Part shown: piece by piece, positions 48,773-55,657 of the stretch
Layout of the letters: each line of letters begins with the position of its first letter
Position numbering within the stretch: position 1 is the stretch's first letter
Assembly (NCBI GenBank): GCA_963662625.1
Contig: OY759726.1
Span: forward strand, 896,001-960,000
DNA length: 64,000 nucleotides
Direction: 5' to 3'
From: Nitrosopumilus sp.
Lineage (GTDB): Archaea > Thermoproteota > Nitrososphaeria > Nitrososphaerales > Nitrosopumilaceae
Position numbers and translations under genes: made by a program
Notes under the pieces: model-generated
Told to the model about the DNA's origin: nothing
The model's database searches: none
What the model saw: the letters and a program-made list of their open reading frames with translations, nothing else

Positions 48773-49138
48773 ATGTCAATCGAACAGCAAGTGATAGAGG
48801 CGGCAAAACAGGGCAAATTCCTGGTTCACAGGTGCGAAAAGTGCGGCCACACGCGCCTGCCTACCGCGTATTTCTGTACGAAATGCGGCGGCAAGGGGCA
48901 CGAAGACGTCATTTTGGGGGGCGCGGGCAGCATCGCCACCTACACCATAATCACGGTGGCGCCTGCGGGCTTTGAAAAGTACACCCCGTACGCGTTTGTA
49001 GTCCTCAAACTGGACGACGCGGATCTGAGGATCTCCGGGTTCATGGCGGGAATCGCAACCCCCGGCGATCTTCCCGTCGGCACTAGGGCCAAGATCGCAG
49101 GCTTCGACGAGCGCGGGATAATAATCGAAAAGCAGTAG
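48773..49138 (+). CDS. DUF35 Zn-ribbon/OB-fold thiolase partner
   Basis: CEKCG..P...CTKCG, TYTII..AP.GF...PY. Confidence 0.9.
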   Translation: MSIEQQVIEAAKQGKFLVHRCEKCGHTRLPTAYFCTKCGGKGHEDVILGGAGSIATYTIITVAPAGFEKYTPYAFVVLKLDDADLRISGFMAGIATPGDLPVGTRAKIAGFDERGIIIEKQ

Positions 49139-49208
49139 TTTTTTTTGTTACAATTATTAAAAAAAATCAAAGCCGATTCTTAATAATTCTGCAGGGCCGA
49201 TCACTCCC

Positions 49209-49370
49209 ATGTCAGTTGAGGTAGTGTGCGGAAAGTGCGGAGAAAAGATCGCGAGCATGAAGATGCTAAAGTCGCTCAAGGACGCAATGCACCCGTCCGG
49301 CGGCAAGTGCCCCTCGTGCGGGCAGAGGCTGTCCACGTCGGAGTTTTCTCTCGACGTGCATGAGAATTGA
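49209..49370 (+). CDS. 53-aa zinc-ribbon microprotein (missing from ORF track)
   Basis: MSVEVVCGKCG...KCPSCGQRL; AT-rich promoter upstream. Confidence 0.8.
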   Translation: MSVEVVCGKCGEKIASMKMLKSLKDAMHPSGGKCPSCGQRLSTSEFSLDVHEN

Positions 49371-49610
49371 CCGGGTCCGCCGCCCGGGCCGGGGGCGCCG
49401 GAAGTGCCTTGCCCTGCGGTGCCGGACCGGCCTACGCCCCGCCACCAAGCCGCGCGGATGTCGGGAAGCTCCATGCTACACCGCGCATAACCGCCACGGG
49501 ACAGCGCCGCCCCTGATCGGCATGCATGCAAAACCGGATCAAACCCCCGGTCCGGTGACGCCTGCCTGCACGTCACAAGTCTTATTTACCGTTTAATAGA
49601 GCATGAACGT

Positions 49611-51704
49611 GTGGAACTAAAGGGGAGTGTGGAAGAACCCAAGAGGAGCGGGATACTGCAGTCCACGTCAAAGCGCGTGAAGATGATCTTTTCCGTCATG
49701 GCAAGCCCCAACAGGATCGACATCCTCCGAATCCTGAATTCAAAGGGGCCGCTGACGTACTCCGAACTGAAATCACTCGCGGGGTTCAAGTCCAAAAAGG
49801 AGAGCGGGAAGTTTGCCTACCACCTGAGAAAGCTGCTGAGGCAGTCCCTCGTGGGGCTAAACAAGTCCGAGAGGCGCTACACCATAACAAACCTCGGGAA
49901 GCTCGTCCTGAGCCTGGCAAAGCAGATCGAGGACCGCTCGATCATCGAGAGCGGAAACATGTACGTCAGGACCTCGCACGAGTCCATCGACGAGTTCAGC
50001 CAGCATAAAATCATCCAGTCACTGGTTCGCGAGGGCAACCTCCCGCTGGAATTGGCACAAAAAATCGCCGAGGAGGTCGGGAACAGGATCAACAAGTATC
50101 AAACCACCTACCTCACAGGCTCGCTAATCAGGGAAATGACTAATTCCGTCCTACTGGAACACGGGTACGAGGAATACCGCAACAAGCTTACGCGCCTGGG
50201 CCTGCCGGTATACGACGTCCAGAGCATGCTCGCAAACCCGGACGCCGTTGAAAACGGGGCCGAGGGGGTGCTGTTCAATACGGGCCAGAGGGTCTTCGCC
50301 GAGCACCTGCTGACCAACACCCTGCAAAAAGACGTCGCGGACTCCCACCTGTCAGGCGATCTTCACATCACAAACCCCGGAACCTGGTCGATGATACCGG
50401 ACACCCTCTTCGTAAATATAAGGGAACTCCTCTCGGACGGGATCTCGCTTGGCGGGAAGTACACCGACGTGTCGCGCGTCCCCCCCTCAAAGCGCCTCGG
50501 CGAGACTGCCTCGGCGCTTTCCATAGCCATTTCGCTGCTGTCAAAGGAGGCCTCGCACGAGGTCGTGCTGGACGACTTTACGCAGCTCTTTGCCAAGCAC
50601 TTCAAGTCAATCTCGGAGCTGGAGCAGGAACTGACCGACGCGTTCACGTCCGTGTCGGCGTCGTCAAAGTACGACAGGGCAAGCACCAGCGTGTCAATAA
50701 GGCTACAGCTAGGCACCGACGCCAAAATCGTCACCGCCACAATCAACGCGTACAAGAACTACGTCGGGATCACCCCGGTGCCCAGGATCGGCCTGGTGAT
50801 AGACCACGAGAAGGGCAAGATCTCGGACGTGTCACAGGCGCTTTCCGAAATAATCTCACTCGGCGGAAAGGTGATGTTTGCGAAGGGCCAGGTGTCGGGG
50901 AGCGGGATCATGAATGGCAAGGCAAGGAACTCCGGCCTGCTCTCGATCATGCTGCAGTCAACATCGATCAACCTGCCGAGGCTCGCGTTTGAGTCAAACA
51001 AGGACGAGACCTACTTCCGGGCAAGGCTTACGTTGCTGATGAAACCGGCGCTGTCATCCATGGTGCAAAGAAAGCGGGACATCTCCGACCTTACCCGGCG
51101 GGGGTTCAACCCGATCCTTGCCAAGAACACCCAGTACATGCAGAGGAGCTCCATATCCCTCGTGATCAACCTGGTCGGCCTGAAAGAGGCCGTCTTCAAC
51201 ATACTCGGGTACCAGAACAACAAGGAGGGCAGGGACGTCCTTCGCAAGGTCGTCGAGACCGCAGTCGACGTGGCGGCCAAGAAAGGCAAGGAATTCGGCG
51301 ACCCGGTGACCATTTCCATGGTAGAAACCGAGAGTTCTGCCCGGTTTGCGAGCCTGGACGGGGAAAAATACGGCAAGAATTCGGCCCTGAACGCCATGGA
51401 TGGCGACTCTTACTCCCAAGGCGTGGTGTTTGACGCGGCGGAGATCGTCAATTATGCTGCTAAAGACGAACCTATCTCGGAGTGCAACAAGCTCTCAAAG
51501 ATCCTCAACGGGGGCCTGCTGGTGGCGCTCAACATCGACAGGGACGCGGCGGCAGGCGAAATCAAAAAATCCATCGAGGCGGCGGCGGAACTGGTGCCGT
51601 CCTTCAAGCCAGTAAAAAACGCGTCTATCTGCGGCGAGTGCGGGTTCAAGGAAGCCTCGTTTGCAGACAAGTGCCCCAGGTGCAAGTCCTCGCACGTCAT
51701 CTGA
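49611..51704 (+). CDS. ArsR-type wHTH + ATP-cone + class III RNR (NrdD)-like protein, apparently catalytically inactive
   Basis: SPNRIDILRIL...AYHLRKL...YTIT.LG; VRTS...EFSQHKI..SL; HLSGDLHI, SINLPRLA, ARFA.LD, NGG; terminal CxxC..CPxC with no following RxxGY. Confidence 0.8.
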   Translation: MELKGSVEEPKRSGILQSTSKRVKMIFSVMASPNRIDILRILNSKGPLTYSELKSLAGFKSKKESGKFAYHLRKLLRQSLVGLNKSERRYTITNLGKLVLSLAKQIEDRSIIESGNMYVRTSHESIDEFSQHKIIQSLVREGNLPLELAQKIAEEVGNRINKYQTTYLTGSLIREMTNSVLLEHGYEEYRNKLTRLGLPVYDVQSMLANPDAVENGAEGVLFNTGQRVFAEHLLTNTLQKDVADSHLSGDLHITNPGTWSMIPDTLFVNIRELLSDGISLGGKYTDVSRVPPSKRLGETASALSIAISLLSKEASHEVVLDDFTQLFAKHFKSISELEQELTDAFTSVSASSKYDRASTSVSIRLQLGTDAKIVTATINAYKNYVGITPVPRIGLVIDHEKGKISDVSQALSEIISLGGKVMFAKGQVSGSGIMNGKARNSGLLSIMLQSTSINLPRLAFESNKDETYFRARLTLLMKPALSSMVQRKRDISDLTRRGFNPILAKNTQYMQRSSISLVINLVGLKEAVFNILGYQNNKEGRDVLRKVVETAVDVAAKKGKEFGDPVTISMVETESSARFASLDGEKYGKNSALNAMDGDSYSQGVVFDAAEIVNYAAKDEPISECNKLSKILNGGLLVALNIDRDAAAGEIKKSIEAAAELVPSFKPVKNASICGECGFKEASFADKCPRCKSSHVI

Positions 51705-51828
51705 GTCCGGCCGGCGCAGGCAGCCCCCGGCCGTCCCGTGAGGGCCCTGCACGCGATCACCTGTTACCGTACAAGTCGTGCCAGCATGAAATCCATAGTA
51801 CTGCCCTATCGATCTTTTTTTACAACAA

Positions 51829-51848
51829 AGTTAATATCTGTATTAACT
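51829..51848. promoter_or_regulatory. Perfect inverted repeat AGTTAATA-tctg-TATTAACT at the nrdJ promoter (candidate operator)
   Basis: 8-4-8 palindrome ending 25 bp upstream of the nrdJ start, at the TATA position. Confidence 0.65.
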
Positions 51849-51873
51849 CATCTTCTCTGCTAGGAGATTATAA

Positions 51874-54525
51874 TTGGATAATTCGCAAGTAGAAAACACC
51901 ATCAACGAGATCCGAAAGAGGAACGGGAACGTCGCCGATTTCAACCAGGACAAGATCTCAAACGCCATATTCAAGGCACTGGCAGCCACCTCTAAAGCCG
52001 ACCGTGGGCTGGCCGATCAACTCGCCGAAAAAGTAGTTGACAGACTAGTGGAGCAGGGCTTCACGCGCAGCAGGGCGCCCAGCGTGGAACACATCCAGGA
52101 CATCGTCGAGTACACGCTGATCGACAGCGGCAACAGCGACATCGCAAAGGCGTACATCGTCTACCGCCACGAACGGCGCAAGCTCAGGGACGAAAAGATG
52201 AAGGTCCTAAACGCAAAGACCCTGGACGAGACCTCCAAGAAGTTCGATCTCAACTGCCTGAGGGTCCTGGCGTCTAGGTACCTCATGAGAAACGGCAAAA
52301 ACGAGATCGTCGAGACCCCCACCCAGATGTTTGAGAGGGTGGCGATCCTGGTGGGGATAGGCGACATGCTGTATGACTCCCAGGTATTTAACCGGTTGGG
52401 AAACACGCCGCAGGACGTAACGGAGGCCCGGACATACCTCGAGAAACTGGACAATTTCGACTACAAGTTCAAGATCGGGGGGTACTTCCTCAACAAGTGG
52501 CACTTTAGGAGCCTTATAAACCACTATGCCACCCTCGCGTCCCAGGGGCAGATGAGGGTAAGCTTCAAGCAGGTGCTGGTGATGCTTGCGGCCAAGAAAT
52601 TCGACAGCTATGCAGACAAGATAGCGGAATACTTTGACCTGATGACCTCCCAGGACTTCCTGCCAAACTCACCCACGATGATGAACGCCGGCGGAAGGCT
52701 CGGGCAGCTGTCCGCGTGCTTCGTCCTCGGGATGCCCGACGACATGGAGCAAATCATGAAGTCCACCACTGACGCCGCGCTTATATTCAAGTCGGGGGGA
52801 GGCGTCGGGATAAACTACTCGGACCTCCGCCAGGAGGGGGACATAGTGGCGTCCACCTCCGGGGTGGCGTCCGGCCCGGTCTCCTTCATGAACATCATAA
52901 ACACCGTCACCGAGGTGGTCAAGCAGGGCGGGAAGAGGCGCGGCGCCAACATGGGAATCATCGAGGTGTGGCACCCCGACGTCGAAAAGTTCATCACGAA
53001 CAAGACGGAGCCGGGAATACTCGAAAACTTCAACGTGAGCGTCGGCATCTGGGAGGACTTTTGGGACGCGCTTGTCAACACGGCCGACGGCAAGTACATG
53101 CTGCGCAGCCCGAACGACAGGAAGCCGGTCAAGGAGATCAACGCGCACCACCTGATCGACCTGATAGCGCTGTCCGCGTGGAAGAGCGCGGAGCCGGGAC
53201 TGATCTTCTTTGATCAGATTAACAAGTACAACGTGTTTGCAAAGGCAAGGCACGCCCCGCTGAGGGCGACGAACCCGTGCGGGGAGCAGAGCCTGTACCC
53301 GTACGAGTCGTGCAACCTCGGCTCGATCAACCTGGCAAACCTCGTCAAGAGGAAGGCCGACGGGGAGTACGAGTTTGACTGGCAGAGGTACGAGGAGACG
53401 ATCCGGAAGACGACCAGGTTCCTCGACAACGTCATCGACGTAAACCACTACCCAGTACACCAGATCAACGTGGCGTCAAAGGACTCCAGGAGGATCGGAC
53501 TGGGGGTGATGGGGGTGGCCGACCTGCTTTACAAGCTCCGGATCCCGTACAACTCCAAGGAGGGCTACGACCTGCAGTCCAAGCTGTCCGAGGCGCTCAC
53601 CTACTACTCCATGGAGGAAAGCGTGGCCCTTGCAAAGTCAAGGGGGGAGTTCCCGCTGTGCCCTGACACGGAATACCCGGAGGGAAAGATCCCGGTGGCC
53701 GGCTACTACGAGAAGCCAAAGGAGATGCATTCCTACGAGTGGGACGCGCTAATAGAAAAGATCAGGAAGCACGGGATACGCAACGTGCTGACCACGACCG
53801 TCGCGCCCACCGGCACGCTCTCGATGATCGCCGACTGCTCCAACGGGATGGAGCCCGCGTTCGCGCTCGTCTTTGAAAAGCGGGTGAACGTGGGCCGGTT
53901 CTTTTACACCAACAAGATCATCGAGGAGGTCCTCAAGGAGAACGGCCTCTACAACGACGAGATCCTCGCAAAGATCGCCGACAACTACGGCTCCCTGAGG
54001 GGGATCCCGGAAATCCCGGAATGGATGCAAAGGGTCTTCGTGACCGCGATGGACATCCACTGGTCTGACCACCTGATGGCCCAGGCGGTGTGGCAGGACT
54101 GGATCGGCAACGCGATCGCCAAGACGATCAACATGCCGTATGACGTGGCGACCGAGGACGTAAAGTCGGCGTACCTGCTCGCGCACGAGCTGGGCCTGAA
54201 GGGGATAACCGTGTACCGCGACGGCTCGCGGCAGACGCAGGTGCTCCACATGACCAGCGACAACGCAGAAAAGACGTTTGACGTGTTCCCCAGCCCCTAC
54301 CTCACGAGCTACGTGGCCACCGCGATACAGAACCCGTACATAAAGTCCCAGGTCACCAGCGCGCTGGAGCTCAAGCCACGCGACGAGGCGATCGCGCCAG
54401 AGCCGCCGAGGCACGACGCGGTGGCGGAGGACCGGCTGTGCCCCACCTGCAAAAACAACCTCATCTTCGTGGAGGGGTGCAGCATCTGCATCGAATGCGG
54501 CTACAGCGGGTGCGCGTCCGGGTAG
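51874..54525 (+). CDS. nrdJ: Class II (AdoCbl-dependent) ribonucleotide reductase with ATP cone
   Basis: PNSPT.MNAG, SACFV, RRGA, TNPCGEQ, SCNLGSIN, APTGT, KGITVYRDGSR. Confidence 0.95.
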   Translation: MDNSQVENTINEIRKRNGNVADFNQDKISNAIFKALAATSKADRGLADQLAEKVVDRLVEQGFTRSRAPSVEHIQDIVEYTLIDSGNSDIAKAYIVYRHERRKLRDEKMKVLNAKTLDETSKKFDLNCLRVLASRYLMRNGKNEIVETPTQMFERVAILVGIGDMLYDSQVFNRLGNTPQDVTEARTYLEKLDNFDYKFKIGGYFLNKWHFRSLINHYATLASQGQMRVSFKQVLVMLAAKKFDSYADKIAEYFDLMTSQDFLPNSPTMMNAGGRLGQLSACFVLGMPDDMEQIMKSTTDAALIFKSGGGVGINYSDLRQEGDIVASTSGVASGPVSFMNIINTVTEVVKQGGKRRGANMGIIEVWHPDVEKFITNKTEPGILENFNVSVGIWEDFWDALVNTADGKYMLRSPNDRKPVKEINAHHLIDLIALSAWKSAEPGLIFFDQINKYNVFAKARHAPLRATNPCGEQSLYPYESCNLGSINLANLVKRKADGEYEFDWQRYEETIRKTTRFLDNVIDVNHYPVHQINVASKDSRRIGLGVMGVADLLYKLRIPYNSKEGYDLQSKLSEALTYYSMEESVALAKSRGEFPLCPDTEYPEGKIPVAGYYEKPKEMHSYEWDALIEKIRKHGIRNVLTTTVAPTGTLSMIADCSNGMEPAFALVFEKRVNVGRFFYTNKIIEEVLKENGLYNDEILAKIADNYGSLRGIPEIPEWMQRVFVTAMDIHWSDHLMAQAVWQDWIGNAIAKTINMPYDVATEDVKSAYLLAHELGLKGITVYRDGSRQTQVLHMTSDNAEKTFDVFPSPYLTSYVATAIQNPYIKSQVTSALELKPRDEAIAPEPPRHDAVAEDRLCPTCKNNLIFVEGCSICIECGYSGCASG

Positions 54526-54562: not shown

Positions 54563-55657
54563 GTGAACGGGAGAACCCTCCTCGTCGCGCTTGCCGGAAT
54601 CGCGGTCGTAGTCGGGAGCGCGCTGGCGCTGCTCCAGGAGCCCGCTACGCGGGAGCCTGCCGAGAAGATCGGCCTGGTGATAAACACCCCGGGCCAGTCC
54701 GCGTCGATGCAGGAGCTGGATCGGATATACTCGGCCGCCGCCGCCACCGGGATCGGGAGAAACAACGTCTACCTATTCTGGGACGCGCTGGAGCCTGCGA
54801 GGGGCCAGTTCGACTGGGAACAGCCGGACGTCCTGATGGGCCTTGGCAAGAGTAACGGCCTCAAGGCCACGCTCTACTTTTCCGTAATCAACGGCGAGAC
54901 GCTGGGCCCGTTCCCCGACTGGATCGGCAGGCCGTCGCTCAACGCAATCGACGGGACGCACCTCTTCAACGCGCTTGACGCGGTACTGTCACGGTACGAC
55001 ACAATCGACACCGTCATAATCGCCGGGGAGGCAGAGTCGCACTTCCGCTACTCCGAGCAGAGCATCCCCGTCTACAAGGAACTGTTCGCCGGCCTGTACG
55101 ACCGGCTGAAGGAGAGGCACCCCGACGTGAGGATCGGCAACGCGTTTGGCCTCCACCACGTCCTGAACAAGAACCTGGGCCACATAGTAACGGAGCTTGC
55201 AGTGGGGGACTTTGTCGGGTTTACGTACTTTCCAGTCGACTCCCTGAACGACATCGCAAGGACCCCCTCCGAGGCAAAGGATGATCTGGCGGCCTCGCTG
55301 GAGCTGGTGCCCGGCAAGAGGGCCGGGTTCCTCGAGGTGGGCTGGAGCACGTCGGACTTTGTAGGGGGGAGCGAGCCGGCACAGGCGGCGTTCGTCCAAA
55401 AGTCGATGGAGTTTTACTCGGAGAATGAGCCCGGAATTGAGTTCCTCACGTGGTACAGGCAGTATGACCGGCACGCGGGCACCTGCGCGGCAGGGCAGGT
55501 GCCGCAGGACAGCCCCGGCGGCGTGGGGCTTGCAGGCAGCGAGCATGTGATCGAGAGGCTGGGCCACTACGTGTGCAGCTCTGGGCTGATATCCTCCGAC
55601 GGCACGCCAAAGCCGGGATGGGGCGAGTTCCGTGCCCGGATCGGGGATGTAGGCTGA
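54563..55657 (+). CDS. Secreted glycoside-hydrolase-like (TIM-barrel) hypothetical protein
   Basis: N-terminal TM, W..LEP..G.FDW, FLEVGWS, GL...DG.PKP.W. Confidence 0.6.
   Translation: MNGRTLLVALAGIAVVVGSALALLQEPATREPAEKIGLVINTPGQSASMQELDRIYSAAAATGIGRNNVYLFWDALEPARGQFDWEQPDVLMGLGKSNGLKATLYFSVINGETLGPFPDWIGRPSLNAIDGTHLFNALDAVLSRYDTIDTVIIAGEAESHFRYSEQSIPVYKELFAGLYDRLKERHPDVRIGNAFGLHHVLNKNLGHIVTELAVGDFVGFTYFPVDSLNDIARTPSEAKDDLAASLELVPGKRAGFLEVGWSTSDFVGGSEPAQAAFVQKSMEFYSENEPGIEFLTWYRQYDRHAGTCAAGQVPQDSPGGVGLAGSEHVIERLGHYVCSSGLISSDGTPKPGWGEFRARIGDVG

Follow-up and report, generated by a model that had tools for sequence, protein, structure and literature searches.

REG, a catalytically dead relative of class III ribonucleotide reductase, as a candidate transcription regulator of nrdJ in an ammonia-oxidising archaeon

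ArsR/SmtB-type regulators such as HlyU, NolR and ArsR bind palindromic DNA as dimers; they are about 100-120 aa long and usually sense metals or small molecules. NrdD, the catalytic subunit of class III ribonucleotide reductase (RNR), is represented by the E. coli protein and by structures from T4 (1H78/1H7A), T. maritima (4COI) and P. copri (8P23), together with 9D3X. NrdR, the bacterial RNR repressor with known S. coelicolor structures, combines a DNA-binding domain with an ATP-cone and is encoded beside an RNR gene; according to the accessible text of PMC9110341 it binds boxes that overlap the transcription start when it carries dATP plus ATP, and it is rare in archaea. Features of all three are joined in one gene of a Nitrosopumilus sp. 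genome, referred to here as REG, which lies just upstream of the class II RNR gene nrdJ in the 64,000-nucleotide stretch that was analysed (assembly GCA_963662625.1, contig OY759726.1, positions 896,001 to 960,000 of the forward strand; hereafter the window, in whose own numbering coordinates are given).

The N-terminal 100 residues of REG are similar to ArsR/SmtB-type regulators and to DUF7347, whereas the protein as a whole has 697 aa and would carry an RNR-derived module for sensing and dimerisation. Like NrdD, it has a homologous body, a four-Cys Zn ribbon and an ATP-cone placed N-terminal to the body. Unlike NrdD, it has no glycyl loop, I433 and T265 in place of Cys, HxTN in place of HxHD, a specificity and loop-2 region that cannot be aligned, an extra N-terminal winged helix, no NrdG detected in its genome, and an aerobic host. 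The arrangement proposed for REG is that of NrdR, and the nrdRJ pair of Streptomyces parallels REG-nrdJ; REG would be the only RNR-dedicated regulator of its genome. Outside the cone, however, there is no homology to NrdR: in place of a DNA-binding Zn ribbon there is a winged helix, the Zn ribbon of REG is C-terminal and NrdD-derived, the cone has no K-R dyad, and a dead body of 500 aa is attached. No description of the REG family was found in the literature covered, which included the accessible text of PMC9669993, PMC9531940 and PMC4390871 and excluded subscription journals and supplements.

Our preferred reading, to which we assign a probability of about 0.55, is that REG is a DNA-binding transcription regulator of nrdJ with an RNR-derived sensor and dimer module, an analogue of NrdR and not a homologue. 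On this reading, a catalytic subunit of class III RNR has become a pseudo-enzyme, its radical chemistry gone and an ArsR-type winged helix added at the N-terminus. This pseudo-enzyme would act as a dimeric winged-helix regulator dedicated to, or centred on, nrdJ, and the ATP-cone-like domain, perhaps with the dead barrel too, would sense the ligand and serve for dimerisation. What we infer here is that REG binds DNA, together with its target, its ligand and the sign of its effect; the observations from which these are drawn are set out below.

Two Pfam families recognise the winged helix, DUF7347 at residues 26-100 (40.7 bits, cut-off 27.6) and HTH_20 at residues 30-81 (31.5 bits, cut-off 27), and the corresponding part of the REG family profile gave weak matches to the HlyU, NolR and ArsR structures in the Protein Data Bank (PDB). 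The ATP-cone at residues 117-189 scored 25.6 bits against a Pfam cut-off of 25.8 in the protein scan and 29.0 bits, above the cut-off, in a six-frame scan of the genome. An NRDD match of 92 bits spans residues 441-694 and ends at profile position 530 of 562; the glycyl-radical end is therefore absent from REG. When 12 relatives were scanned for domains, the winged helix was found in all 12, the ATP-cone in 11 and NRDD in 10.

The homology of the body to NrdD emerges at the level of the family. A phmmer search of the PDB with the single REG sequence gave no NrdD match, while a profile built from alignment A1, with 75 diverse members of the family, matched 9d3x (3.5e-40), 8p23 (2.5e-39), 4coi and 4u3e (both about 2e-34) and 1h78 (8.5e-32). 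These matches span nearly the whole REG body, at profile positions of about 190-725, and the motifs LPR-V-DAH-G-IH and NLPR-A-ES are common to REG and NrdD. On this profile evidence, the REG body is homologous to the ten-stranded NrdD barrel. Scores against models specific for NrdD are low, with 88.1 bits for the NrdD equivalog TIGR02487 (cut-off 326.35) and 28-46 bits for six further NrdD equivalog models of NCBIfam (cut-offs 545-764).

The residues of the radical chemistry are missing. E. coli NrdD, taken from the K-12 record, was then added to A1. Its motifs PNCML, MGCRSF and RRVCGYLG contain C175, C384 and G681, respectively, which we take to be its radical residues. C175, on the first barrel strand, aligns to T265 of REG and the loop thiyl residue C384 to I433, and at neither position is Cys found in any of the 75 family members. 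The column of G681 is empty in REG, where the protein has already ended, and holds 30 gaps and only 2 Gly across the family. REG ends in ...KCPRCKSSHVI, 6 residues past C691, and lacks the glycyl-radical loop RxxGY. Its Cys residues are 625, 674, 677, 688 and 691; there is none before residue 625, hence none before the segment SINLPRLA, and the loss of the radical Cys is therefore independent of alignment detail. The E. coli Zn-site residues C644/C647/C662/C665 correspond to C674/C677/C688/C691 of REG and are kept in 70-72 of the 75 members. In the accessible text of PMC11226230, C171, C416 and G711 of P. copri NrdD, the homologous radical residues, have stated roles, and the HxHD motif of NrdD binds the substrate triphosphate. 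HxHD has become H252-I-T-N in REG; 53 of the 75 members retain H252, and the positions after it have no majority residue in the family consensus.

Longer relatives keep a vestigial tail past the Zn ribbon, of the form …GR-x-x-x-Y-x-P-L…W…, in which the Tyr beside the radical Gly is kept and the Gly itself is replaced by N, T, I, A and others. The tail is wholly absent in the Nitrosopumilaceae form, and some clades are without the Zn ribbon too. The pattern resembles a catalytic apparatus decaying step by step while the family stayed under selection.

A further column of A1 is of note for the history of the family. At the position of E. coli N405 (M447 in REG, N435 in P. copri), 6 of the 75 members have Cys and 16 have Asn. 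The accessible text of PMC11226230 gives this barrel Asn position as Cys in those NrdDs that do not use formate, and the mixture hints that the family arose from more than one NrdD chemistry or drifted through them.

The rest of the genome, a single 1.86-Mb contig with 99.5% completeness, offers no sign of a working class III system. Profile scans identified nrdJ as the sole RNR barrel, with its ATP-cone, all-alpha and barrel domains intact, and confined NRDD matches to REG; no Gly_radical domain was found, and the NrdR model TIGR00244 was without a match. For the activase, the best genome scores were 32.6 bits for NrdG (TIGR02491, cut-off 126) and 34.9 bits for NrdG2 (TIGR02495, cut-off 131). 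These sub-cut-off matches are generic radical-SAM open reading frames (ORFs) distant from the REG locus, and no radical-SAM gene is among the neighbours of REG. Archaeal AmoA is present, and the host is therefore an O2-dependent ammonia oxidiser.

Public records call the close homologues of REG, which carry the organism names Nitrosopumilus and Nitrosarchaeum, either "anaerobic ribonucleoside-triphosphate reductase" or "helix-turn-helix domain-containing protein". That REG is still an enzyme using a separately encoded radical or cofactor, as the first of these names and the retention of barrel and Zn ribbon under purifying selection might suggest, is nearly excluded by the loss of the radical Cys pair, the Gly loop and an intact HxHD, by the absence of any activase or glycyl-radical domain above cut-off in so complete a genome, by equivalog scores far under their cut-offs and by the aerobic life of the host. 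The alignments support REG as a catalytically dead derivative of NrdD. An earlier note on this DNA, made from its letters alone, had arrived at much the same picture: it described a winged helix, an ATP cone and a class III RNR-like body in one 697-aa protein, without the RxxGY loop and without Cys ahead of SINLPRLA, followed by an intact class II RNR gene and with no nrdG adjacent, and from this it proposed a dead RNR scaffold that would be misannotated as anaerobic RNR. The domain scans, the two Cys columns and the Gly column across 75 homologues, the genome-wide search for nrdG and the database names all agree with that description.

Apart from REG and NrdJ, no protein of the genome has an ATP-cone. 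Family residues 110-190 align to the ATP-cone of NrdJ in hhalign with a probability of 96% (E 4e-9), and the REG cone has a signature of its own, V119-R120-T121-S122 ... F129 ... K133-I134 ... Y189-R190 ... R195. Most of this signature is strongly kept among the 75 members: V119 and I134 in 75, R120 and F129 in 74, R195 in 73, R190 in 71, S122 in 70, Y189 in 67 and T121 in 60. R190 and R195 are among the basic residues of the cone's C-terminal helix that have been retained. Read from its sequence, the cone is clearly a functional domain.

Constraint on REG is greatest at its N-terminus. Among 29 Nitrosopumilaceae proteins, mean identity to the window protein is 95% in the winged helix (76 of 86 columns invariant), 86% in the ATP-cone (59 of 92) and 59-70% in the barrel segments, with 19-63 invariant columns each. 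A winged helix that is more constrained than the barrel is the reverse of what would be expected of an enzyme. This constraint and the palindromes conserved in the REG-nrdJ spacers of relatives are indirect signs that REG may bind DNA. Three genomes of the sample additionally contain short REG copies consisting of the winged helix only (G013:C1:1091142-1091393, G052:C1:3105845-3106150 and G001:C1:915720-915980), which are 89%, 60% and 41% identical to residues ~10-111; two of the three contain stops, and they could be pseudogene fragments or stand-alone winged-helix paralogues.

REG is widespread. It was found in 60 of the 61 sampled genomes of the family Nitrosopumilaceae, including all 52 of high quality, and when the class was searched with the family profile, 100 of 121 genomes had it, 80 of the 81 high-quality ones among them. 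Among 1.84 billion cluster representatives, 1117 relatives were found at E <=1e-3. The ESM Atlas lacks the exact REG sequence; feature-based neighbours of a homologue stored there (P0053) come from archaeal clusters labelled Nitrososphaerota, Bathyarchaeota, Promethearchaeota, Thermoproteota and Nanobdellota, which serves as a lead only. Linkage to nrdJ is tight among close relatives, with an nrdJ start just 3' of REG in 63 of 66 loci; of the remaining three, at least L019 is explained by a contig end. Among 20 loci that belong to other families or to divergent genera, 10 have nrdJ next to REG, the two genes being arranged in tandem, convergently or divergently.

Several observations weigh against REG as a nucleotide-sensing regulator of nrdJ, and the first of them concerns this linkage. 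In the other 10 of the 20 distant loci, REG is not beside an RNR gene, and its neighbours are unrelated or at most loosely related genes, for example pyrB/pyrI, a NUDIX gene, an SSB-like OB protein, an RFC-like AAA protein and a tRNA intron endonuclease. Such unrelated neighbours, the near-universal presence of REG as a single-copy core gene of the class and the lack of one operator common to all nrdJ promoters would fit a general DNA-binding protein or global regulator, of replication or the cell cycle for example, whose proximity to nrdJ is historical. We consider this unlikely, as linkage to nrdJ in three gene orientations across families suggests selection for proximity, and REG is itself RNR-derived and keeps its ATP-cone. 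It is quite unlikely, too, that REG acts on the NrdJ protein, forming hetero-oligomers that tune its activity and using the winged helix in another role. ATP-cones drive the nucleotide-dependent oligomerisation of RNRs and of NrdR (accessible text of PMC11226230 and PMC9110341), and the genome's only two proteins with such cones are encoded side by side; the part of REG that is most conserved is the winged helix, however, and not the cone or the barrel, and adjacency is lost in half of the distant loci.

The sensing function assigned to REG as an nrdJ regulator is also weakened by the state of its nucleotide sites. In the hhalign alignment, the canonical K-R dyad of the cone falls on T121-S122; in P. 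copri NrdD, K7 and R8 are among the residues that neutralise the triphosphates (accessible text of PMC11226230). A shift of the alignment by one residue, which would bring R120 to the place of the Lys, is conceivable, and the REG cone may bind nucleotides in an altered way or no longer at all. The segment that forms the specificity site and loop 2 in P. copri NrdD appears solely as an insertion against the family profile, and the sequence therefore lends no support to a barrel that senses dNTPs. Of the (d)ATP sensing that the earlier note had suggested by analogy with NrdR, the recognisable cone fold stands, whereas the K-R dyad is T-S here and in most family members.

The nrdJ promoter poses the remaining difficulty. 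The earlier note had pointed to a perfect palindrome in this promoter as the operator through which REG would act, and the palindrome, AGTTAATA-tctg-TATTAACT, does exist: it is the single perfect match in the genome, and in the window it is the sole match even when 3 mismatches are allowed (0.02 expected). With arms of 8 nt or longer and a spacer of 0-10 nt, about 13 different perfect palindromes can be counted in the 64-kb window, from which the chance of finding one within a 60-bp promoter is about 1 in 80; its landing on the nrdJ promoter by chance is thus unlikely and not extraordinary. A genome-wide search for a regulon with the palindrome showed no enrichment over controls beyond the site at nrdJ. 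In an alignment of 29 REG-nrdJ spacers, none of the 28 relatives has it, two of the same genus included. Its left arm falls on a conserved block, TTTTT-G-CACA-AAGTTATAT, which stands at a fixed spacing from the GGAG and the start codon; we take this block to be the B recognition element (BRE)/TATA promoter of nrdJ, and the promoter of REG itself has a similar CAC-AAGTCTTATTTA. The right arm is a few changes apart from a loosely kept A[T/G]TAATCAT stretch of the relatives. The recognition helix of REG is identical between the window and the relatives, so that a conserved site would be expected, which speaks against a palindrome confined to one lineage.

The TATA-box and start region is a typical position for archaeal repressors. 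A REG dimer bound at the palindrome, which lies on the TATA box between promoter elements and start, would, if the site is used, repress nrdJ by promoter occlusion, that is, by blocking TBP/TFB. The perfection (8-4-8) and uniqueness of the site and its position are in keeping with this model, and its half-site GTTAATAT recurs in an upstream variant of two relatives, so that a site might have been re-created on the promoter. We find the model doubtful given the absence of the palindrome from all relatives, the coincidence of its left arm with the conserved TATA box and of its right arm, nearly, with the relatives' own sequence, the winged helix that is 95% identical to theirs and so argues for a conserved and not a new site, and the number of comparable palindromes in the window. 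As a conserved operator, the palindrome does not hold up.

Relatives keep other elements in this region, counted in genomes that are kin, so that the counts overstate independence. The first is the palindrome TATGAAnTTCATA (box1). Of 56 distinct nrdJ upstream regions, 27 contain it without a mismatch and 4 others with a single one, for the most part between -106 and -135 relative to the nrdJ start. In 61 genomes there are 34 perfect box1 sites vs 30 for a control pattern; 13 of the 34 sit in the REG-nrdJ spacer of about 200 bp, and the remainder are at background level. The second (box2), GGTGT[C/A/T]AA-N5-TTGA[C/A], is absent from the window spacer. Of 35 representative regions upstream of nrdJ, 15 contain its core, TGTCAA/TTGACA (shuffle mean 4.4, maximum 10), and in the form TTTGTCAAA this core turns up again 5' of nrdJ in other families, including cases in which REG is convergent. 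The box2 variant of L014 and L018, GTGTTAATATTATTGAAC, is the one that shares a half-site with the window palindrome; if the upstream element was lost first, the site may then have arisen anew on the promoter. Archaeal activators usually bind 60-80 bp upstream of the TATA box, and the conserved elements of the relatives lie 60-80 bp upstream of that of nrdJ. Enrichment of 7-mers in the 35 representative regions is dominated by A/T-rich words, the ribosome-binding site and the TATA box. Just past the REG stop, many relatives have a further palindrome, ACGATCATCGT, and CGATCAT occurs in 14 of 35 representative spacers.

Other counts weigh against REG as the regulator of nrdJ. In this genome, box1 at up to 2 mismatches occurs at 21 sites vs 21 for the control, and its remnant in the window spacer is not distinctive. 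TGTCAA-N5-TTGACA occurs at 59 sites vs 30 for the control, none of them at nrdJ, and no regulon emerges. In distant lineages, TGTCAA stands 5' of the RNR gene in 4 of 14 REG-positive and 0 of 6 REG-negative genomes, a trend too weak to count, and one that leaves out L112 and L119-L124 (gene start not placed) and L099 (no site, REG status unclear). Box1 and the TGTCAA element are at most candidate sites of REG.

The features of the locus are collected in Table 1. REG begins with GTG, where relatives use ATG at the same codon, and the spacing from its TATA-like box to the GTG makes a leaderless mRNA likely; the block GTCAC-AAGTCTTATTTAC is kept across an alignment of 30 REG upstream regions. The distance from the nrdJ core promoter to the GGAG is 35 nt here and 33 nt in relatives.

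Table 1. Features of the REG-nrdJ locus, in window coordinates
Feature	Position	Strand	Details
Putative TATA-like box of REG, CTTATTTA	49581..49588	+	about 25 nt 5' of the GTG
REG gene: winged helix, ATP-cone-like domain, dead NrdD-like body, Zn ribbon	49611..51704	+	697 aa
Winged helix-turn-helix, ArsR/DUF7347 type	49677..49934	+	residues 23-108
ATP-cone-like domain	49935..50210	+	residues 109-200; Pfam, hhalign
NrdD-homologous barrel body without radical residues	50211..51590	+	residues 201-660; profile and E. coli NrdD alignment
C-terminal Zn ribbon (C674, C677, C688, C691)	51591..51704	+	6 residues, then stop; no glycyl-radical loop
Box1 remnant, CATGAAATCCATA	51785..51797	.	two mismatches from TATGAAnTTCATA; at the aligned position in the spacer alignment
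Putative nrdJ core promoter: T-rich/CA stretch and AAGTTAATAT	51820..51838	+	aligns with TTTTT-G-CACA-AAGTTATAT of relatives
Perfect palindrome, AGTTAATA-tctg-TATTAACT (8-4-8)	51829..51848	.	lineage-specific; overlaps the TATA box
GGAG, Shine-Dalgarno-like, before nrdJ	51863..51866	+	GGAGATTAT kept in relatives
nrdJ: adenosylcobalamin-dependent class II RNR, canonical ATP-cone	51874..54525	+	TIGR02504 723.9 bits, cut-off 400

The neighbours of REG are genes for a rhomboid protein, a CN-hydrolase, a thiolase, a DUF35-type OB/Zn-ribbon protein, nrdJ, an ORF without a family, Rpr2 and S19e. The ORF without a family follows directly on nrdJ (54563-55657, forward strand) and encodes 364 aa with no Pfam family at E <=1e-4. 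The DUF35-type gene and REG are separated by about 470 bp (49139-49610) of GC-rich DNA in which no ORF is convincing; just 5' of REG, the DNA of many relatives resembles the end of a small Zn-ribbon ORF (...CPSCGQ-LS-SEF..., then E-N-stop, as read from the DNA alignment). GATC-containing words (TGATC, GGATCC, TTGATC) crowd the REG upstream regions of many relatives, among them L016, L017 and L003-L008, in L017 for example at every 10-15 bp, and two such words, CTGATCGG and CGGATCAAA, occur in the window at 49500-49560. An Rfam scan of 49100-52000 found no riboswitch and nothing near a gathering score, the best match being snoU13-like and in the coding region (20 vs 46 bits). A sigma-70 and terminator scan gave nothing useful, its models being inapplicable to archaea. 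Three sequencing runs, all of them DNA contigs from one study, are listed with the locus, and no RNA run is.

Class II RNR genes of three other genomes of the class Nitrososphaeria are unusually long, with open frames of 1270 aa (G079:C6:28778-31381), 1272 aa (G081:C1:305658-308318) and 1646 aa (G067:C10:90298-94353). In G067 the barrel match is broken into three pieces. These lengths suggest inteins within nrdJ of the three genomes.

A wider proposal, which we put forward tentatively and hold to be improbable as a whole, is that transcription factors made from dead class III RNR fill the role of NrdR throughout archaea, with the RNR body and the VRTS cone reading the nucleotide pool and setting nrdJ transcription. 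In this high-GC lineage, the upstream sites would have decayed and a new operator would have arisen on the TATA box, perhaps shifting control from upstream binding to promoter occlusion.

The transcriptional control of DNA-precursor supply in archaea is largely unknown, and REG is a concrete candidate for the missing regulator. Its name in the databases matters as well, as an anaerobic RNR can wrongly imply anaerobic DNA synthesis in metabolic reconstructions of aerobes. If the proposed function is true, REG would show clearly how the scaffold of an enzyme was reused as a sensor, and this in ammonia-oxidising archaea, which are among the most abundant microbes of ocean and soil and depend on a single B12-dependent RNR.

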